From NCBI RefSeq assembly GCF_051903065.1, contig NZ_CP178438.1: 64,000 nt of DNA; one strand, written 5' to 3'. The position numbers were made by a program, and so were the translations under genes. Under the pieces are notes generated by a model. That model worked only from the letters and a program-made list of their open reading frames with translations. It searched no databases and was not told where the DNA came from. The first letter of the stretch is position 1. Every line of letters starts with the position of its first letter. This DNA is from Escherichia coli (GTDB taxonomy: Bacteria > Pseudomonadota > Gammaproteobacteria > Enterobacterales > Enterobacteriaceae). This document shows positions 12,903 through 27,346 of this stretch, piece after piece.

Positions 12903-12979
12903 GGCCGATATAGCTCAGTTGGTAGAGCAGCGCATTCGTAATGCGAAGGTCGTAGGTTCGACTCCTATTATCGGCACCA
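12903..12979 (+). tRNA. thrW: tRNA-Thr (CGU anticodon), prophage attachment site
   Basis: GCCGATATAGCTCAGTTGGTAGAGCAGCGCATTCGTAATGCGAAGG...TCGGCACCA cloverleaf ending in CCA, immediately followed by an integrase gene. Confidence 0.85.
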
Positions 12980-12993
12980 TTTAAATCAATAAG

Positions 12994-14157
12994 TTACACA
13001 TCATTAGTACCTTCCTTATTTTTTGACTGGGACAAATTTGGGACCGATGGGTTCAGGATCGAGTCTATTTGCCGTGCGTGTTCGGTAAGGTGATTAGGTG
13101 CAAGGTGAGCATATCGACGAACCATTTCGATAGACTCCCAGCCTCCCATTTCCTGTAACACTGACAACGGGACTCCGGCTTGAACTAGCCAACTTGCCCA
13201 GGTGTGTCTCAAGTCGTGAAATCTGAAATCATCAATACCAGCCCGTCTCAGCGCCGCTTTCCAGGCTGTGTTTGCGTCATACCGCATCTTCCTTACTGTT
13301 GGCGCTTTCGTTCCGTCTGGTTTGGTACAGCTTTCCTTGTACACAAATACCCAACGGTGATGATTCCCGATTTGTTTTTTCAAAACGCGACATGCAGTAT
13401 CATTCAGCGCAACGCCAATTGCGCGGTTTGATTTACTCTCTTCCGGGTTTATCCATGCCACCCGGCGCTGCATGTCTATTTGTTGCCATTCAAGGTTGAT
13501 GATGTTCGAGCGTCTTAAGCCTGTTGCCAGTGCAAATTCAACAACAGACTTTAATGGCTCCGGACATTCATCAATCAGCCTTTGTGCTTCATGGGGCTCC
13601 AGCCAGCGGATCCGTTTATTCTTTGGTTGAGGCACTTTAATAATTGGTGCCTTATCCAGCATTTTCCATTCACGCTCTGCGGCTCTTAGTAGGGCCTTTA
13701 TAAATGAAAGATGCGTAGCCTTCGTTGCAACGGACGCTGGTTTTGGCGTGTATTCTGGAACAGGTTTCCCTTTTTTTCTGCATGCTTCTGCCCTGAGTCT
13801 CCAGTTTTCCTCATGACGCCGGTTCGTCATTTTCTGCATTGCTGAATAAATTTTTGATTCAGTAATGTCTCTTAGTTGCATTCCTGCGAAATGTTGAAGC
13901 CAGAATCCGATCCGGCTTTTGTCATCGTCCAGTGATTTTTTATGTGCTTTCTCTTCAAGCCACCTGACACACGCTTCCTCGAACGTTATATCAGGTATTT
14001 CACCAAGTTTGCTGACCCGCCATGCTTCAGCCTTTAGCTTGTCATGGAGTTCTGTCGCCTGCCTTTTGTCCTTTGTTCCAAGAGACTGTTTAAATCTTTT
14101 ACCGTTCGGCAATGTGAAACTGGCGTACCATATTTCACCTCTGCGGAAGAGTGACAT
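12994..14157 (-). CDS. int: tyrosine integrase, P22 Int-like
   Basis: 387 aa, [31 protein letters not shown]..., catalytic [15 protein letters not shown]...VRRYAHL; adjacent to thrW. Confidence 0.95.
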
Positions 14158-18273: not shown

Positions 18274-18948
18274 TTAGGCTTTGATTTTGTATCTTCTTGG
18301 TTTTCCTGAGAAAATCACTGTACCAATTATAGAGCAATTACCGTTGATCTTAATGTAAGGCTCAGGCCAGTTTGGGTTTAACGCTTTGAGATAACGCTGT
18401 GTCCCATCTTCTATCAACCTTTTGAAGGTGGTTTCGCCTGTATCGTGCATCAATGCAATAACGTCGTCACCGTGGCAGGCAGGTACTTCAGGATCGACAA
18501 AAATCATGTCTCCCGGGCGGTACTCATCAATCATTGAATCACCTATCACCCGCAAGATATAAGTCATTTCCCCACAGGGTACAGGGCAGGGATACGTTTC
18601 TGCTGTGCTCAAATCAACCTCAGAATATCCAACTTCTTTCCATGCTCCGGCCTGTACCCATGATATGACAGGGACTAATGTGATTTGTTTATTAGTGATT
18701 GAAACATCAGGTTTTTTTGTGATGTTCGTTGTCTGGTGTTCTTGATCGAGCCATCCGACAGGCAGGTCGAAACATTTTTCGATGTGTCGTGCCATGCTGT
18801 CACCGATATTTTTAGTAGCACCATCTCCCATAAACCTGCTGGTCTGGGTTGGCTCGCGATCAATCATAGTGGCAAAGGAAGAATTCCCGCCAACACCATC
18901 TCTCAGTTTTCTGGCGTTAGACCGCCGGATGTCATGGATTGTTTTCAT
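18274..18948 (-). CDS. cI: CI-like repressor (HTH + S24 LexA-like peptidase domain)
   Basis: 224 aa, C-terminal S24 motifs (VIGDSM...YRPGDMIFVDPE...GDDVIALMHDTGETTFKRL); divergent from cro. Confidence 0.9.
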   Translation of the reverse strand: MKTIHDIRRSNARKLRDGVGGNSSFATMIDREPTQTSRFMGDGATKNIGDSMARHIEKCFDLPVGWLDQEHQTTNITKKPDVSITNKQITLVPVISWVQAGAWKEVGYSEVDLSTAETYPCPVPCGEMTYILRVIGDSMIDEYRPGDMIFVDPEVPACHGDDVIALMHDTGETTFKRLIEDGTQRYLKALNPNWPEPYIKINGNCSIIGTVIFSGKPRRYKIKA

Positions 18949-20178: not shown

Positions 20179-21120
20179 ATGAGCACTAAATTAACCGGCT
20201 ATGTATGGGATGGTTGCGCTGCGTCAGGCATGAAATTATCCAGCGTGGCAATTATGGCCCGCCTGGCTGATTTCAGTAATGACGAAGGTGTGTGCTGGCC
20301 ATCAATTGAAACCATTGCCCGTCAGATTGGCGCGGGGATGAGTACCGTCAGAACGGCTATCGCACGGCTGGAAGCAGAAGGCTGGTTAACGCGTAAGGCG
20401 CGTCGCCAGGGTAACCGCAATGCGTCGAATGTTTATCAGCTTAACGTTGCGAAGCTTCAGGCAGCGGCATTTTCTCAACTGTCAGATTCTGACCCGTCAA
20501 AATCTGACGCATCAAAATCTGACCCGTCAAAATTTGATGCGTCGAAATCTGGCAAAAAAGCGGGTTTTCACCCGTCAGAATCTGGCGGGGATCCGTCAGT
20601 AAAATCAAAACATGATCCGTCAGATAAAAAAACTTCTCGTCCGGACGCTTCGCAACCGGACACGCAGACGGCTGAACAGGAGTTTTTAACTCGCCATCCT
20701 GATGCGGTTGTATTCAGCCCTAAAAAGCGCCAGTGGGGAACGCAGGATGATTTGACCTGCGCACAGTGGCTCTGGAAAAAAATCATCGCCCTGTACGAGC
20801 TGGCCGCCGAATGTGACGGCGAGGTGGTTCGTCCCAAAGAACCGAACTGGACAGCCTGGGCAAACGAAATTCGCCTGATGTGTGTGCAGGATGGTCGTAC
20901 TCACAAACAAATCTGCGAGATGTACAGCCGCGTCAGCCGCGATCCGTTCTGGTGCCGTAACGTGCTCAGCCCGTCGAAGCTGCGGGAAAAATGGGATGAG
21001 CTTTCCCTGCGCTTATCGCCGTCCATCAGCACATACACAGAAAAACGCGAAGACCCGTATTTCAAATCCAGTTACGACAACGTGGACTACAGCCAGATCC
21101 CGGCAGGATTCAGGGGGTGA
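20179..21120 (+). CDS. replication initiation protein (O-like)
   Basis: 313 aa, N-terminal HTH region, low-complexity SKSD repeats, conserved C-terminal domain; iterons within the gene. Confidence 0.75.
   Translation: MSTKLTGYVWDGCAASGMKLSSVAIMARLADFSNDEGVCWPSIETIARQIGAGMSTVRTAIARLEAEGWLTRKARRQGNRNASNVYQLNVAKLQAAAFSQLSDSDPSKSDASKSDPSKFDASKSGKKAGFHPSESGGDPSVKSKHDPSDKKTSRPDASQPDTQTAEQEFLTRHPDAVVFSPKKRQWGTQDDLTCAQWLWKKIIALYELAAECDGEVVRPKEPNWTAWANEIRLMCVQDGRTHKQICEMYSRVSRDPFWCRNVLSPSKLREKWDELSLRLSPSISTYTEKREDPYFKSSYDNVDYSQIPAGFRG
20470..20600 (+). repeat. origin iterons within the replication gene
   Basis: Tandem CCGTCAAAATCTGA-like repeats (at least five) followed by an A-rich stretch. Confidence 0.65.
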
Positions 21121-21611
21121 GCATGAGTCTTTTGAATGAAGTTCAGAAATTCATTGAAGCCCATCCGGGCTGTACTTCCGGAGACATTGCGGATGCTTTT
21201 GCAGGTTACTCACGGCAGCGCGTTCTGCAGTCAGCAAGCAAGTTACGTCAGAGTGGGCGTGTGGCTCACCGTTGTGAAGGGGATACACGCAGACATTTCC
21301 CGCGCCTGACTGAGAGAGCGCAGGAGCCGGAACCACAACCAGTTCGTGAAACCAGACCTGTGCGCAATTTCTATGTCGGCACTAACGATCCACGGGTGAT
21401 TTTGTGCCTGACCCGCCAGGCTGAAGAACTGGAGTCCAGGGGCCTATACCGTCGTGCTGCAACGGTGTGGATGGCGGCATTCCGTGAAAGCCACTCCCAG
21501 CCAGAACGAAACAATTTTCTGGCGCGTCGTGAGCAGTGCTTACAGAAAAGCAGCAAGCGCGCTGCATCGGGTGAAGAGTGGTATCTGTCAGGGAATTACG
21601 TGGGGGCGTAA
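21117..21611 (+). CDS. PerC-like transcriptional regulator, tentative
   Basis: 164 aa; motif GLYRRAATVWMAAF resembles the PerC/Pch family as I recall it. Confidence 0.4.
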   Translation: MSMSLLNEVQKFIEAHPGCTSGDIADAFAGYSRQRVLQSASKLRQSGRVAHRCEGDTRRHFPRLTERAQEPEPQPVRETRPVRNFYVGTNDPRVILCLTRQAEELESRGLYRRAATVWMAAFRESHSQPERNNFLARREQCLQKSSKRAASGEEWYLSGNYVGA

Positions 21612-21937
21612 TGACGACGTTAACTCAATGCCAGCAGCAGGTGCTGGATATGCTGATTTCTTATCAGAAAGAACGTGGCTTCCCGCCAACCAATCAGGAG
21701 GTGGCTACCATGCTGGGATACCGTTCAGTGAATGCAGCGGTGGAGCATCTTCGCGCACTGGAGAAAAAAGGCGTCATCACGATAAAGCGTGGCGTGGCAC
21801 GGGGGATAACGCTTCATACCGCGGTGAAGGACGACGACAGCGAGGCGGTCGGGATTATCCGCTCACTGCTTGCCGGTGAGGAAAACGCCAGGCTGCGTGC
21901 AGCCCACTGGTTACATGAGAGGGGCCTGAAAGTATGA
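21611..21937 (+). CDS. LexA N-terminal DNA-binding-domain protein
   Basis: MTTLTQCQQQVLDMLISYQKERGFPPTNQEVATMLGYRSVNAAVEHLRALEKKGVI parallels the LexA N-domain; no S24 peptidase domain. Confidence 0.6.
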   Translation: MTTLTQCQQQVLDMLISYQKERGFPPTNQEVATMLGYRSVNAAVEHLRALEKKGVITIKRGVARGITLHTAVKDDDSEAVGIIRSLLAGEENARLRAAHWLHERGLKV

Positions 21938-22323
21938 AGCTGATCCTGCCTTTTCCGCCCAGCGTGAACACGTACTGGCGACACCCCAACAAAGGGGCGT
22001 TTGCTGGTAAGAGCCTGATAAGCGCGGCGGGGCGCAAATTCCAGAGCGCGGCGTGTGCAGCAATAGTTGAGCAGTTACGTCGTCTGCCAAAACCAACGTC
22101 GGCACCTGCTTCAGTGGAGATCGTGTTGTTTCCTCCGGATAACCGGATCCGCGATCTGGACAACTATAACAAGGCGCTGTTTGACGCCCTGACCCACGCG
22201 GGGGTGTGGGAAGACGACAGCCAGGTGAAAAGAATGCTGGTGGAGTGGGGGCCGGTTATCCCGGAAGGGAAGGTCGAGATCACTATCAGTAAGTACGAGA
22301 AAACGGCGGGTGCAGCCGCCTGA
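21934..22323 (+). CDS. rusA: Holliday junction resolvase RusA
   Basis: 129 aa, MKLILPFPPSVNTYWRH..., D-rich catalytic region RDLDNYNKALFDALT. Confidence 0.85.
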   Translation: MKLILPFPPSVNTYWRHPNKGAFAGKSLISAAGRKFQSAACAAIVEQLRRLPKPTSAPASVEIVLFPPDNRIRDLDNYNKALFDALTHAGVWEDDSQVKRMLVEWGPVIPEGKVEITISKYEKTAGAAA

Positions 22324-24151: not shown

Positions 24152-24502
24152 TTGATGCGTGATATGTATGAAGTATTGGACCGCTGGGGAGCATGGGCTG
24201 CAGCAGAAAATAGTGGTGTGGACTGGCAGCCGATAGCGGCTGGTTTCAAGGGACTTTTACCACACGGTAAAAAGTCACGTCTCCAGTGTGATGATGATGA
24301 AGGCATCATGATAGATAGTTGTGTGGCTAGGTTGCGTAAATATAAGCCGGAAGAGTATGAGCTGATAATTGCTCACTTTGTTATCGGTATCTCATTACGC
24401 ACTATTGCGAAGAAGAGAAAATGCTCTGATGGGACTATAAGAAAAAAGTTGCAAGCTGCATTGGGATTTATTGATGCAGTTATATATATAATACATGGGT
24501 AA
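24152..24502 (+). CDS. Q: antitermination protein Q
   Basis: 116 aa, position upstream of late promoter and lysis genes; Q-family C-terminus. Confidence 0.7.
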   Translation: MMRDMYEVLDRWGAWAAAENSGVDWQPIAAGFKGLLPHGKKSRLQCDDDEGIMIDSCVARLRKYKPEEYELIIAHFVIGISLRTIAKKRKCSDGTIRKKLQAALGFIDAVIYIIHG

Positions 24503-24510
24503 TTTATTAG

Positions 24511-24529
24511 ACGGCCATATTGGCCGTCA
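24511..24529. terminator. bidirectional hairpin between Q and cargo operon
   Basis: Perfect palindrome GACGGCCA-TAT-TGGCCGTC. Confidence 0.55.
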
Positions 24530-25714
24530 GCTAAATAAATATGTAATAGCATAAGGCGTAAGTAAAAAGTAGAACCTAAATGTAAGATATAAGCCACATA
24601 AAACTATAATTCCTAATGAGGCAAAAACAACTTTCTGAACAAGCAATCTTGTGGTTAAACTATCAAATGTATCCTTTATATCTTCGTAAATAGCCTTGAA
24701 GTTATATTCTGCTTGTTGTTTTTTATGATTTAACTCATCATTTATTGCTGTTAAAGTTTGCCATTGATTAAATAGAACAAATAGAATCATAATAGTGAAG
24801 AACAATGCACCCAACACTACAGCTGTATTTATTAATGCTTGACTATCCCAACCATTAGCCTGCTTCATTTGAGTCGCAACGATAATTGTTGCGACGGGGA
24901 TACCTAATATCTGATTTTGTATGTCACTGAATACTTTATGTATTTTTCCCATCTCTTCTATTTTGGCTACTCGTAACTGATCCAGTATTTTCTCGTAAGA
25001 AAAACCAGAAACGAATACTTTGTATCCTTTTTGATAACTTTCATAAAGTTGTCCTAAATCCCTTAACATGAAGGAAAAAGAGGTTTCTTTAGTTTTAGAT
25101 TCACATGATGATTTTATGCTACTTGCTAAAATAGTAAGTTTTTGATCTTTATGCGTATCTTCTGCAAAGTTTGCGATCAAATTATGAATCAGATCTCCAT
25201 TAACATTCATAAGATCATCGCTAGAATAATTTACTGGAATTTTTAGTACGTTGGATTCGACGAATACCAATTCAAAATTTGTTTCATCTAAATAAGCAGA
25301 ACAATCTTTGAATAAAGTAATTAAGCTCAAAACATCTCTGTACTTGGATATAATAGCAGGCGACTTTTTATCCCTGTTGTGATAATTAAGTTCGATTATA
25401 AAGAAGTTACTGGCTTCCTTTATCCTATTTTTAGGATTTTTTAAATACTCATTAAAAGAGAAATGTAGCTGCCCCAATCGTAATTTGGGGGGGGTTATAT
25501 GTAAGGTTATAGTTTGGCCTAACTCAATGTTGCCAGATTCAAGGGTGATGCCAAAATCATGGGGATTCTCTGTGATATCGTTGATGATGTCACAGAGCTC
25601 CTCGTTTGAAAGAATGAGTGATGCTTCAGATAGGGTACCTGCAAATGTAGCGGCCTTGTAAATAGTCACTAAGTCTTTGAAGGTTCTCTGATTGTTACTG
25701 CTCATCCTCTTCAC
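24527..25714 (-). CDS. membrane protein with two C-terminal TM helices (candidate effector)
   Basis: 395 aa; hydrophobic helices ALINTAVVLGALFFTIMILFVLF and VVFASLGIIVLCGLYLTFRFYFLL; AT-rich by eye; start overlaps upstream gene stop. Confidence 0.7.
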   Translation of the reverse strand: MKRMSSNNQRTFKDLVTIYKAATFAGTLSEASLILSNEELCDIINDITENPHDFGITLESGNIELGQTITLHITPPKLRLGQLHFSFNEYLKNPKNRIKEASNFFIIELNYHNRDKKSPAIISKYRDVLSLITLFKDCSAYLDETNFELVFVESNVLKIPVNYSSDDLMNVNGDLIHNLIANFAEDTHKDQKLTILASSIKSSCESKTKETSFSFMLRDLGQLYESYQKGYKVFVSGFSYEKILDQLRVAKIEEMGKIHKVFSDIQNQILGIPVATIIVATQMKQANGWDSQALINTAVVLGALFFTIMILFVLFNQWQTLTAINDELNHKKQQAEYNFKAIYEDIKDTFDSLTTRLLVQKVVFASLGIIVLCGLYLTFRFYFLLTPYAITYLFS

Positions 25715-26729
25715 CTAATTCTGATAAAATCTCTGATCTTAGCGTATCCGGAATCTCGGTAAGTATCAATTTATCGTTTTCTGAATCATAAAGAACGCTG
25801 CCATCATGCAAGGCCGCACGCTCGAATTTCAGAGACCAATGTTTGGACTTTCCTTTGAAACTAACAAGCCCACGTATAACGTTGCCATCAGGCACGAACC
25901 CATCAGAGAACTCCAGATCGTCATTGGTTAACTTTTCAACTAACAACTCAGGAGCAGTTGGCCATATCTCGTTTGCAAAAACTTGAGTGTCGAAAGCTTC
26001 ACCAGAACGATTTAAATTTTTTAATTTTTCATGAGCCTTATTTAGGAACTCTTCACGTGCCTCTGGTTCAAAACCTCTTTCAGTAGCAAATTCTAAAAGT
26101 GCATTCCGTAATTTTGTTGTTTCTTGTTTGGCAATTAGAATATCGTTACAACCTAAAAACTTTTTGAAATAACCTGCTACTGAATTTTGCCCCTTTAGAA
26201 AGCTAATATATCTCTCTTTGCCATTCTGGCGCCCAGTTAAGTCAATTCGTCCCGCTACTCGAAGTTTAGCAATGTCTAGATATTCACTTTCTTGAATTTC
26301 AAAATCGTGGACTGAAGAGCCAACTGCTGATGTTAGGATTGCAACCATCAAATAATGATTTCCATTTACCTCATTATGGGCAATTATTACATAACCACCA
26401 GTAGACATTGATTCATCATCGGCTCTGGCTTTTAAATGATTGATCATTCGGATACTAGTATCATAAAAACTATGTGTTTTATTTACGAAATAATCATCAA
26501 CGATATTACCCATAGGGTAACTATCGCGGTCATCTTCAAATTTACCATATCCTTTACCTGCTCTCCCAGAGTACCTTTCAGTAAGTGCGTTAGAGAGGTC
26601 TTTTGATGCTTGCTGAACAGGTTTTTCTGAAGGACAAGGAATAATGGTGGCTAACCCCTGTTGTTCCTTGTTCATAATGTGAACAATAAACTTATGAGTG
26701 ATATTAGTGGGGGTCGCTGATGCAGTCAT
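25695..26729 (-). CDS. NdpA/YejK-like (NA37 family) nucleoid-associated-type protein
   Basis: 344 aa; collinear motifs with E. coli YejK as recalled (YLMVAILTSAVGS, DIAKLRVAGRIDLT, RYISFLKGQ); AGGA RBS upstream of ATG. Confidence 0.65.
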   Translation of the reverse strand: MTASATPTNITHKFIVHIMNKEQQGLATIIPCPSEKPVQQASKDLSNALTERYSGRAGKGYGKFEDDRDSYPMGNIVDDYFVNKTHSFYDTSIRMINHLKARADDESMSTGGYVIIAHNEVNGNHYLMVAILTSAVGSSVHDFEIQESEYLDIAKLRVAGRIDLTGRQNGKERYISFLKGQNSVAGYFKKFLGCNDILIAKQETTKLRNALLEFATERGFEPEAREEFLNKAHEKLKNLNRSGEAFDTQVFANEIWPTAPELLVEKLTNDDLEFSDGFVPDGNVIRGLVSFKGKSKHWSLKFERAALHDGSVLYDSENDKLILTEIPDTLRSEILSELGEEDEQ

Positions 26730-27019: not shown

Positions 27020-27346
27020 ATGCCTCATAACCCAAATACCTGGCTGGAGTTGGTCCAGAGCTGGTGGCGTGGAGACACACCGCTGGGCGCAGTGATTATG
27101 TCGATTGTTATGGCTGGTTTGCGCATTGCCTATTTTGGCGGTGGTGGTGGCTGGAAGCGAAAAACACTCGAAATTCTACTCTGTGGCGCTCTGACGCTGA
27201 CTTTTGCATCCGCTCTTGAGTATGTCGGATGGCCTAAATCGCTTTCTGTTGCCATTGGTGGTGGGGTGGGGCTGATCGGTGTCGATGCTATTCGTGGGGC
27301 TGCAATGAGAGTAATCGGTAATAAGTTTGGTGGCTCTAAGGAGTAA
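27020..27346 (+). CDS. holin
   Basis: 108 aa small membrane protein with TM segments, directly upstream of endolysin. Confidence 0.8.
   Translation: MPHNPNTWLELVQSWWRGDTPLGAVIMSIVMAGLRIAYFGGGGGWKRKTLEILLCGALTLTFASALEYVGWPKSLSVAIGGGVGLIGVDAIRGAAMRVIGNKFGGSKE

Follow-up and report, generated by a model that had tools for sequence, protein, structure and literature searches.

The PerC protein of enteropathogenic Escherichia coli (EPEC) and the proteins PchA, PchB and PchC of enterohaemorrhagic E. coli (EHEC) are activators of LEE1/ler in the enterocyte effacement locus (LEE). The Pch proteins are encoded on prophages and control LEE, curli and flagella (PMC5931665, PMC7369912, PMC4764244), and Pch relieves the silencing exerted by H-NS, StpA, Hha and YdgT at LEE1 (PMC4764244). 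The gene yfdN of E. coli K-12 was called the "K12 unique PerC homologue" and was deleted from a K-12 ler::lacZ reporter before the Pch proteins of O157 were assayed; in this assay PchA-C activated ler, whereas PchD gave no activation (PMC5931665). Among phage-encoded relatives of LexA, the truncated homologue gp6 of the Bacillus thuringiensis tectivirus GIL01 is 44% identical to the DNA-binding domain (DBD) of the host LexA and binds a distinct site at -43.5, which overlaps the -35 element of the late promoter P3, and activates late transcription (PMC6182141). Furthermore, the Gifsy prophages of Salmonella contain a dinI-antirepressor-irsA operon that is controlled by LexA (PMC3121763). Here we describe a locus that carries a gene of the PerC type directly followed by a gene of the truncated LexA type. 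It is located in a stretch of 64,000 nucleotides (nt) of E. coli (assembly GCF_051903065.1, contig NZ_CP178438.1, one strand), which is referred to as the window. The first gene (21117-21611, + strand) encodes a YfdN-type protein of the PerC family and the second (21611-21937, + strand) a LexA-type DBD that lacks the S24 peptidase domain. The coordinates of both open reading frames (ORFs) in a preliminary description of this DNA were exact.

The PerC-like and the LexA-like gene are independent cassettes and do not form a functional pair. Both are located as accessory genes in the rightward early operon, which extends from replication to Q, of a prophage that is SfII/SfIV/SfV-like. Both family assignments are already known, since public genomes annotate the two genes accordingly, with the RefSeq names "yfdN: PerC family transcriptional regulator" and "LexA family protein/transcriptional regulator", respectively; some records label the LexA-like gene "SOS-response repressor and protease LexA". 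Moreover, the genes belong to one of the commonest prophage modules of E. coli. The 821-base segment that comprises both is found in 2674 of 5426 complete E. coli genomes, with a coverage of 80% or more in 2153 of these, and almost all copies have 95-99% identity. The block from the O-like gene to the RusA gene is 97-98% identical to the Shigella phages SfII and SfIV and the coliphages mEp460, Kati, and SKA5, and also matches Stx2a and Stx2c phages, and the LexA-like gene is additionally present in SfV and phage cdtI. What is added here is modest and comprises the independence of the two cassettes, a predicted winged helix in the YfdN-type protein, a tail-bearing family of LexA-like proteins without Glu44, and a distant branch of this family in Gifsy-like SOS operons. 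As an overall explanation we favour, with slightly more belief than doubt, that the two independent cassettes of the early operon encode a counter-silencer of the PerC type and a LexA-like protein that acts as SOS-independent regulator at a palindromic operator.

The YfdN-type PerC protein

The PerC-like protein has 164 amino acids (aa) when translated from the annotated GTG at 21117 and 162 aa from an ATG at 21123. The latter is the likelier start, as it is preceded by the Shine-Dalgarno sequence GGGGG and is used by most homologues. The assignment to the PerC family, which had been proposed because of a short motif, is confirmed by a match to Pfam PF06069 with an E value of 6.6e-9 and 36.3 bits, which is above the curated gathering cut-off of 22.6. 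In the 162-aa form this match extends from residue 98 to 149, and it comprises positions 5-56 of the 90 positions of the profile. Furthermore, the protein matches phrog_1324 (E 1e-77), phrog_2608, and phrog_10396 of the PHROG collection, all of which are named "transcriptional activator". The motif itself, GLYRRAATVWM, corresponds to residues 109-119 (nt 21441-21473), and L110 as well as R112-M119 are invariant in the 15 aligned PerC-like homologues. Together with the Pfam match and the AlphaFold2 (AF2) model, this invariant motif delimits a PerC domain of residues 92-151 (21390-21569, + strand), which is predicted to consist of three helices (residues 92-107, 111-124, and 128-151) with a predicted local distance difference test (pLDDT) value of ~90. 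The model of the whole protein, which was calculated from the alignment of 15 sequences, has a mean pLDDT of 77. Similarity of the PerC domain to the ANR family is weak (E 9.4e-5, below the ANR cut-off). A sequence search gave no match of the PerC-like protein in the PDB, and a Foldseek search gave none for the PerC domain. The defence models of PADLOC yielded matches at noise level only, for the PerC-like as well as for the LexA-like protein.

The protein is not a small single-domain protein, as its 162-164 aa exceed the 90 positions of the profile by far, and this YfdN-type architecture is common to all 15 aligned homologues. The N-terminal residues 2-62 (21120-21302, + strand) are located outside the Pfam PerC match and are predicted to fold into a winged helix, with helices at residues 2-15, 21-27, and 33-46 and strands at residues 49-54 and 57-62, all with a pLDDT of ~90. 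Foldseek aligned this domain with winged helices of the ArsR/SmtB, BlaI/MecI, MarR, and Z-alpha types with a root-mean-square deviation (rmsd) of 1.6-3.3 Å over ~60 residues, at weak E values of 0.07-0.3. Weak sequence matches of the MarR type agree with this putative winged helix, namely phrog_1687 (E 8e-5) and BilQ (E 0.003, which is below the BilQ cut-off). Between the two domains the protein contains a linker rich in proline and glutamate (residues 65-86; 21309-21374, + strand), for which the pLDDT is below 50 and which varies in length among the homologues due to insertions and deletions. According to the model, the YfdN type thus joins a PerC domain to a second domain that probably binds DNA.

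Compared to PerC of EPEC and PchA/B/C of EHEC, the window protein shares the PF06069 domain, the RRAAxxW core and the location on a prophage. It differs from them by the additional predicted winged helix, by the disordered linker of ~20 residues, and by its position in a lytic early operon. The closest relatives are YfdN of the K-12 prophage CPS-53 (KpLE1) and the corresponding protein of the SfII, SfIV, mEp460, and Stx2 phages, which are encoded by the same gene in the same slot after the replication gene. A protein with 96% identity to the PerC-like protein (P0259) accordingly bears the name CPS-53 (KpLE1) prophage protein. Nothing material differs between these phage copies and the window protein, apart from the Dam cassette that usually follows the gene and is missing in the window. 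In the literature that we found, no PerC-like protein of the window type is described as active on ler or on another promoter. In a published screen, a fragment of UTI89 that includes yfdN2 led to filamentation of E. coli when over-expressed (PMC6206680). This fragment (4,997,073-4,999,597) contains part of the Rha gene, a small ORF, the O-like gene, the PerC-like gene yfdN2, and part of the Dam gene, and it excludes the LexA-like gene. As it spans five genes, the filamentation is not attributable to any one of them, and we rejected it as evidence for a function of the PerC-like protein.

The truncated LexA-like protein

The second gene (21611-21937, + strand) starts with ATG and encodes a protein of 108 aa. 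The entire 65-position profile of PF01726 (LexA_DNA_bind) is matched with an E value of 2.9e-19 and 69 bits at a cut-off of 23.7, and the protein belongs to phrog_362 (E 1.4e-59). The equivalog model TIGR00498 for LexA reaches 70.8 bits, which is below its cut-off of 110.95, and is covered at positions 1-91 of 203 only. Pfam gave no match to Peptidase_S24, and the protein ends at residue 108. The profile searches, which the preliminary description itself had named as what could refute it, thus gave support for its claim of a LexA N-terminal DBD without S24 domain. For both genes, chance can hardly account for matches of this strength to the profiles. The protein aligns without gaps to residues 2-69 of E. 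coli LexA with ~50% identity. On the basis of this alignment and of the AF2 model (mean pLDDT 83, from an alignment of 16 sequences), residues 1-68 (21611-21814, + strand) form a LexA-type winged helix-turn-helix, and the recognition helix corresponds to residues 40-52 (21728-21766, + strand). The model can be superimposed on the LexA-DNA complex 3jso with an rmsd of 1.0 Å over 68 residues at 50% identity. Compared to the N-terminal domain of E. coli LexA (1lea, 3jso), the window protein has kept S39, N41, A42, and E45 as well as the wing residues K53, G54, and R64, whereas E44 is replaced by V. It also lacks the cleavage site in the linker, the Ser/Lys dyad and the S24 dimerisation domain.

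In place of the LexA linker, cleavage site and S24 domain the protein has a C-terminal tail, which is predicted to form two helices (residues 74-88 and 93-103; 21830-21919, + strand) with a pLDDT of ~87-89. An exhaustive search of cluster representatives showed that this tail is a family trait, as the DBD and the tail are both kept in proteins of ~105-135 aa down to 39% identity. E78, L86/L87, A97, and L101 are conserved down to 39-47% identity, and the hydrophobic pattern of the window protein consists of I82/I83, L86/L87, A97, and W100/L101. Since this pattern exceeds what a free helical hairpin would need, the tail may serve as a dimerisation or docking surface. The sequence "LLAGEE" resembles "VAAGEP" at the cleavage site of LexA and was considered as its relic. 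We rejected this idea, because the Gly is replaced by Asn in four close homologues of the Citrobacter type and the site is absent in distant members. An Ala-Gly self-cleavage site is not conserved in the alignment of the family. As both the cleavage site and the S24 peptidase are missing, RecA-stimulated self-cleavage cannot inactivate the LexA-like protein. Besides the tail-bearing family, we observed P0132, P0152, P0156, P0160, and about eight more single chains of 140-350 aa that contain two LexA-type DBDs in tandem and no S24 domain; by its sequence, each of them resembles a covalent "dimer" of this domain.

As the C-terminal two thirds of LexA are absent and some records name the gene "SOS-response repressor and protease LexA", the gene could be taken for the decaying fragment of an S24-type repressor. 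The ratio of nonsynonymous to synonymous substitution rates (dN/dS) to the homologues in Salmonella and Citrobacter amounts to 0.09-0.14 for the LexA-like and 0.17 for the PerC-like gene, compared to 0.04-0.06 for the RusA gene, which indicates purifying selection, and therefore both genes under study can be considered intact. In addition, proteins from different genera agree in their length and in the novel tail, and the segment is covered over at least 80% in the 2153 complete E. coli genomes mentioned above. The preliminary description had also suggested a regulator of the anti-repressor type, for which we found no support. Pfam and PHROG gave LexA-type and winged-helix families only and no antirepressor family (GftA and Tum were not directly compared), and there is no similarity to irsA of Gifsy-2. 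Moreover, the resident repressor of the prophage carries an S24 domain and for this reason should be cleaved directly. By the selection and conservation data, the origin as a fragment or a function as antirepressor is largely refuted, and we give either next to no credence.

The residues of LexA that contact bases are Ser39, Asn41, Ala42, Glu44, and Glu45 (PMC3091678). The window protein keeps four of these five, with Val instead of Glu44. All 16 aligned family members have Ser39, and nearly all have Asn41. None of the 16 has Glu at residue 44, where V, A, T, F, L, or Y is found, whereas Glu44 is kept in 21 of 24 full-length LexA-like matches, defined as those in which the DBD is followed by 100 or more residues. 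At residue 45, 12 of the 16 have Glu and the other four Gly, Asp, Leu, or Ile; some of these four are from the branch with SOS boxes described below. A protein that occupies SOS boxes should conserve its recognition helix as LexA orthologues do, and the observed pattern argues instead for an altered and diverging specificity of the family. The window itself is not enriched in SOS boxes, as 22 sites with at most one mismatch were found and 18.4 were expected. Candidate SOS boxes in the prophage were rejected, since their number is at chance level, none of them is exact, and none is close to either gene. The sole strong box of the window, CTGTATACTTTACCAG at 2621-2636, is located ~30 nt upstream of dinB, as judged by collinearity with strain A2, and served as positive control for the search.

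These data bear on the proposal that the protein is an uncleavable mimic of LexA, which would occupy canonical SOS boxes (CTGT-N8-ACAG) once the host LexA is destroyed. During lytic growth, such a mimic would re-repress the SOS regulon of the host or those antirepressor operons of co-resident prophages that are under SOS control. The ungapped ~50% identity to the LexA DBD, the identical residues S39, N41, A42, and E45, and the rmsd of 1.0 Å to DNA-bound LexA are in favour of it. However, the loss of Glu44 throughout the family, the variation of residue 45 in 4 of 16 members and the box counts in the window speak against it, and the identity of ~50% does not imply SOS-box binding, as GIL01 gp6 with 44% identity uses a distinct site. 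From the sequence, competition for SOS boxes thus appears somewhat disfavoured. Including the evidence from the distant relatives given below, we consider the LexA mimic doubtful, albeit with a real chance of being correct.

Instead, the protein may form a dimer via its tail on a palindromic operator, which is likelier to be altered or phage-specific than a canonical SOS box. We put this forward tentatively, with almost as much belief as doubt. The closest precedent is again GIL01 gp6, which is likewise a phage LexA DBD without S24 domain, has a similar identity to LexA, and is encoded in an early operon. The phage type and the host are different, and the window protein has a tail of 40 residues in addition, whereas gp6 looks like a DBD alone, since the cloned ORF6 region spans only ~200 nt (PMC6182141).

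Neighbours in related prophages and SOS operons

In the preliminary description the two genes had been treated together as a pair of regulators. Their neighbourhoods in related phages do not bear out this pairing. Among 80 near-identical loci from IMG/VR (L011-L090), which we refer to as the close relatives, the order PerC-Dam-LexA DBD is found in 58, the PerC-like gene directly adjoins the LexA-like gene in 17, and five have no PerC gene at all. This first scan yielded only copies of 99-100% identity and is therefore useful for counting neighbours, not for diversity. The Dam cassette has 654 bp and is inserted exactly between the PerC-like and the LexA-like gene, and the overlaps of starts and stops are preserved with and without it. 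UTI89 carries the form with Dam (L002:5340-5993; the filamentation fragment mentioned above is L002:3074-5598), whereas the window represents the minority form without it. LexA-like homologues with 39-47% identity are found in prophages of Enterobacter, Cronobacter, Cedecea, Klebsiella, and Salmonella. In these distant contexts the upstream neighbour can be a replication gene, Dam, a large DNA methylase or small ORFs, and PerC is present in only one of eight, where it is a PerC-only protein of 78 aa. Most close relatives thus have Dam between the two genes, and most distant ones lack PerC.

The downstream side is more constant. The RusA gene follows next after the LexA-like gene in 79 of the 80 close relatives and is at most one gene downstream in seven of the eight distant contexts, and DUF968 and an antiterminator come next wherever the contig extends far enough. 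Hence it might be assumed that the LexA-like protein is a DNA-binding partner of RusA or of the RusA/DUF968 block, which targets or regulates the resolution of junctions rather than transcription. The ATGA overlap of both genes in the window and the constancy of RusA at 39-47% identity, whatever gene is upstream, are consistent with that, as is the presence of DUF968 and Q downstream in almost every locus. However, in a second IMG/VR scan, for which the distant branch served as seed, DUF968 was found in 80 of 80 loci and RusA in only seven, and yet the tail of the LexA-like protein is conserved there. An obligate partnership with RusA was therefore rejected, as it is seen in the branches of E. 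coli and Enterobacter but fails in that of the Klebsiella type. Moreover, where the identity of the LexA-like proteins is 46-47%, that of RusA is 75-77%. Because the two proteins diverge unequally, their linkage looks like an inherited, conserved backbone of the nin region rather than a co-evolving pair, and we regard a function as RusA partner as very improbable.

The distant branch comprises 80 loci of Klebsiella, Enterobacter, Cedecea, and Salmonella (L098-L177) as well as L092, L010, L007, and L093. In 67 of the 80 loci an exact CTGT-N8-ACAG is located 525-1181 nt upstream of the match to the LexA-like gene, whereas only 11 other exact boxes occur in the 485 kb of these loci. In most cases the SOS box is followed by dinI (or a RecA_C-only protein of 95 aa), a conserved ORF of ~75 aa, the LexA-like gene, an ORF of 67 aa, DUF968, and Q. 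This Gifsy-like arrangement is found at L092:515-1518, L010:3563-4357, L007:3562-4408, and L093:3244-4405. In L092 the SOS box overlaps the -10 element of the promoter as it does upstream of dinI in Gifsy-2. The layout is the same as that of the Salmonella prophages Gifsy-1, -2, and -3, with a terminator, a promoter with SOS box, dinI, an ORF of ~75 aa, and a third gene, which is LexA-like in the distant branch. In contrast, an SOS box of this kind is missing in the window prophage, whose repressor is of the cleavable S24 type. We considered that irsA, which occupies the same slot in the Gifsy operon, encodes a LexA-like protein, and rejected this, since STM1020 of Gifsy-2 is a DUF1367 protein without similarity. 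It is likewise unsupported that the ORFs of 75-82 aa are antirepressors of the GftA type, as their identity to GftA is only 17-24% and they match no Pfam family; from their sequences, these small ORFs may represent a new antirepressor family. In L093 (3310-3597) the first gene after the SOS box encodes, in the slot of dinI, a protein of 95 aa that consists of the C-terminal domain of RecA only (PF21096, E 9e-10). Judged by this domain, the protein could represent a further phage-encoded modulator that acts on RecA or the SOS response.

The 67 loci in which an exact SOS box heads an operon of dinI (or the RecA_C-like gene), a small ORF and the LexA DBD gene are a further argument for the LexA mimic, as are the box over the -10 element in L092 and the LexA-controlled layout of Gifsy (PMC3121763), which imply that the gene travels together with other modulators of the SOS response. 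This association keeps an SOS-related role plausible, yet the host LexA fully accounts for the boxes. A related proposal is that the tail-bearing proteins of 105-135 aa are a distinct RecA-insensitive family of LexA derivatives of enterobacterial lambdoid prophages, which provides timing of or feedback on SOS circuits. In Gifsy-like phages, the SOS-box promoter would drive the LexA-like gene jointly with dinI and the gene of a putative antirepressor, and the LexA-like product would re-close this promoter, and possibly boxes of the host or of rival prophages, after the loss of LexA. SfV-like phages would do likewise from their early lytic operon. Such a timing function seems to us unlikely.

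The early operon and the proposed explanation

The preliminary claim that the genes are encoded on a prophage is well founded. The element is integrated at tRNA-Thr(CGT) (12904-12979), which adjoins proA as inferred by collinearity with strain A2, and it carries an integrase (12994-14112), an S24-type repressor (18274-18948), and the antiterminator Q (24152-24502). The rightward early genes are, after the cI gene, a cro-like and a cII-like gene, DUF4222, the O-like initiator, the PerC-like gene, the LexA DBD gene, RusA, KilA-N, DUF968, and Q. The upstream neighbour of the PerC-like gene is the O-like replication initiator (20179-21120, + strand; phrog_391, E 2.8e-134; Pfam HTH_36 and DnaD_N), and the downstream neighbour of the LexA-like gene is the RusA Holliday-junction resolvase (21934-22323, + strand; Pfam RusA, E 6e-15). 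There is almost no intergenic DNA in the block from O to Q. The stop of the O-like gene overlaps the annotated GTG start of the PerC-like gene in GTGA (21117-21120, + strand), the TAA stop of the latter overlaps the ATG start of the LexA DBD gene in TAATG (21609-21613, + strand), and the stop of the LexA DBD gene overlaps the RusA start in ATGA (21934-21937, + strand). This last overlap of 4 nt recurs in the homologous loci L003, L004, L008, L096, and L097. A consensus scan found no promoter-like or terminator-like site on the + strand between 20179 and 22323. Because of the overlaps and the absence of a promoter-like site of their own, both genes can be assumed to be located on the early lytic transcript and not to be expressed in the quiescent lysogen.

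It is therefore doubtful that the potential cross-talk with the host, which the preliminary description had envisaged, takes place in the lysogen. A related idea would be that the PerC-like protein, and perhaps also the LexA-like one, is cargo of lysogenic conversion, which reprograms the host by acting on H-NS-silenced islands, LEE, fimbriae or flagella in the way of PerC, PchABC, and PchE. This would be in line with the membership in the PerC family, with the control of LEE, curli and flagella by prophage-borne Pch proteins, and with the removal of yfdN from the K-12 ler::lacZ reporter strain before the Pch assays (PMC5931665). However, the PerC-like gene overlaps the stop of the replication gene, has no promoter-like site of its own, and is located in the lytic early operon and not in the position of a moron. 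Furthermore, no activity of YfdN is reported in the papers that we found, and PchD has no effect on ler. A function as conversion cargo is thus rather improbable in our view.

Two further features of the prophage were observed beside the two genes. The O-like gene contains at 20488-20551 an array of 4.3 copies of the 15-bp unit TCTGACCCGTCAAAA, which encodes the repetitive sequence DPSKSDASKS. By its sequence, the TCTGACCCGTCAAAA array looks like origin iterons inside the initiator gene, an arrangement that is known from phage lambda, where the origin iterons are located within the initiator gene. Moreover, an insertion of two genes on the minus strand (24527-26729) separates Q (24152-24502) from the holin gene (27020-27346) and is missing from the otherwise collinear prophage of strain A2. 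One gene encodes a nucleoid-associated protein of 344 aa that is similar to NA37/YejK (PF04245, E 1.5e-68), and the other a protein of 395 aa with a hydrophobic C-terminus and without match to a Pfam or PADLOC family. The insertion may represent cargo for defence or exclusion.

According to the explanation that we favour, read-through from the early promoter would yield both proteins upon induction or infection, and they would be absent from the quiescent lysogen. The PerC-like protein would then act as a Pch/PerC-type counter-silencer of H-NS-bound DNA, for which its extra winged helix would supply or tune the DNA targeting. The LexA-like protein would dimerise via its tail and bind a palindromic operator as a regulator that is independent of the SOS response. 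The late genes of lambdoid phages are controlled by Q.

Several points weigh against this explanation. The winged helix of the PerC-like protein is predicted from an AF2 model built on 15 sequences and from the low-scoring Foldseek matches, dimerisation through the tail is deduced from conserved hydrophobic positions, and the timing of expression from the gene arrangement and a consensus promoter scan, so that a weak internal promoter or read-through in the lysogen may also contribute. Membership in the PerC family is no guarantee of activity, as the inactivity of PchD on ler illustrates, and Pch-type activity is known only for the short PerC and Pch proteins. Our literature searches found no experiment on the activity of the PerC-like/YfdN or the LexA-like protein. 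No candidate operator for the LexA-like protein was found, and the gene block has almost no intergenic DNA. Finally, the four contact residues that are kept and the position of the distant branch behind a canonical SOS box after dinI are still compatible with binding of the protein to SOS boxes.

The finding re-derives the existing annotation of a very common prophage module of E. coli and by itself changes little. Both genes are present in about half of the complete E. coli genomes as well as in serotype-converting phages of Shigella and in Stx phages. If the LexA-like protein indeed acts on SOS-box or LexA-related operators and is immune to RecA-stimulated cleavage, it would be a tool by which phages rewire the SOS response and the cross-talk between prophages. 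If the winged-helix PerC protein is indeed a counter-silencer, it would link the lytic development of the phage to H-NS-silenced DNA.

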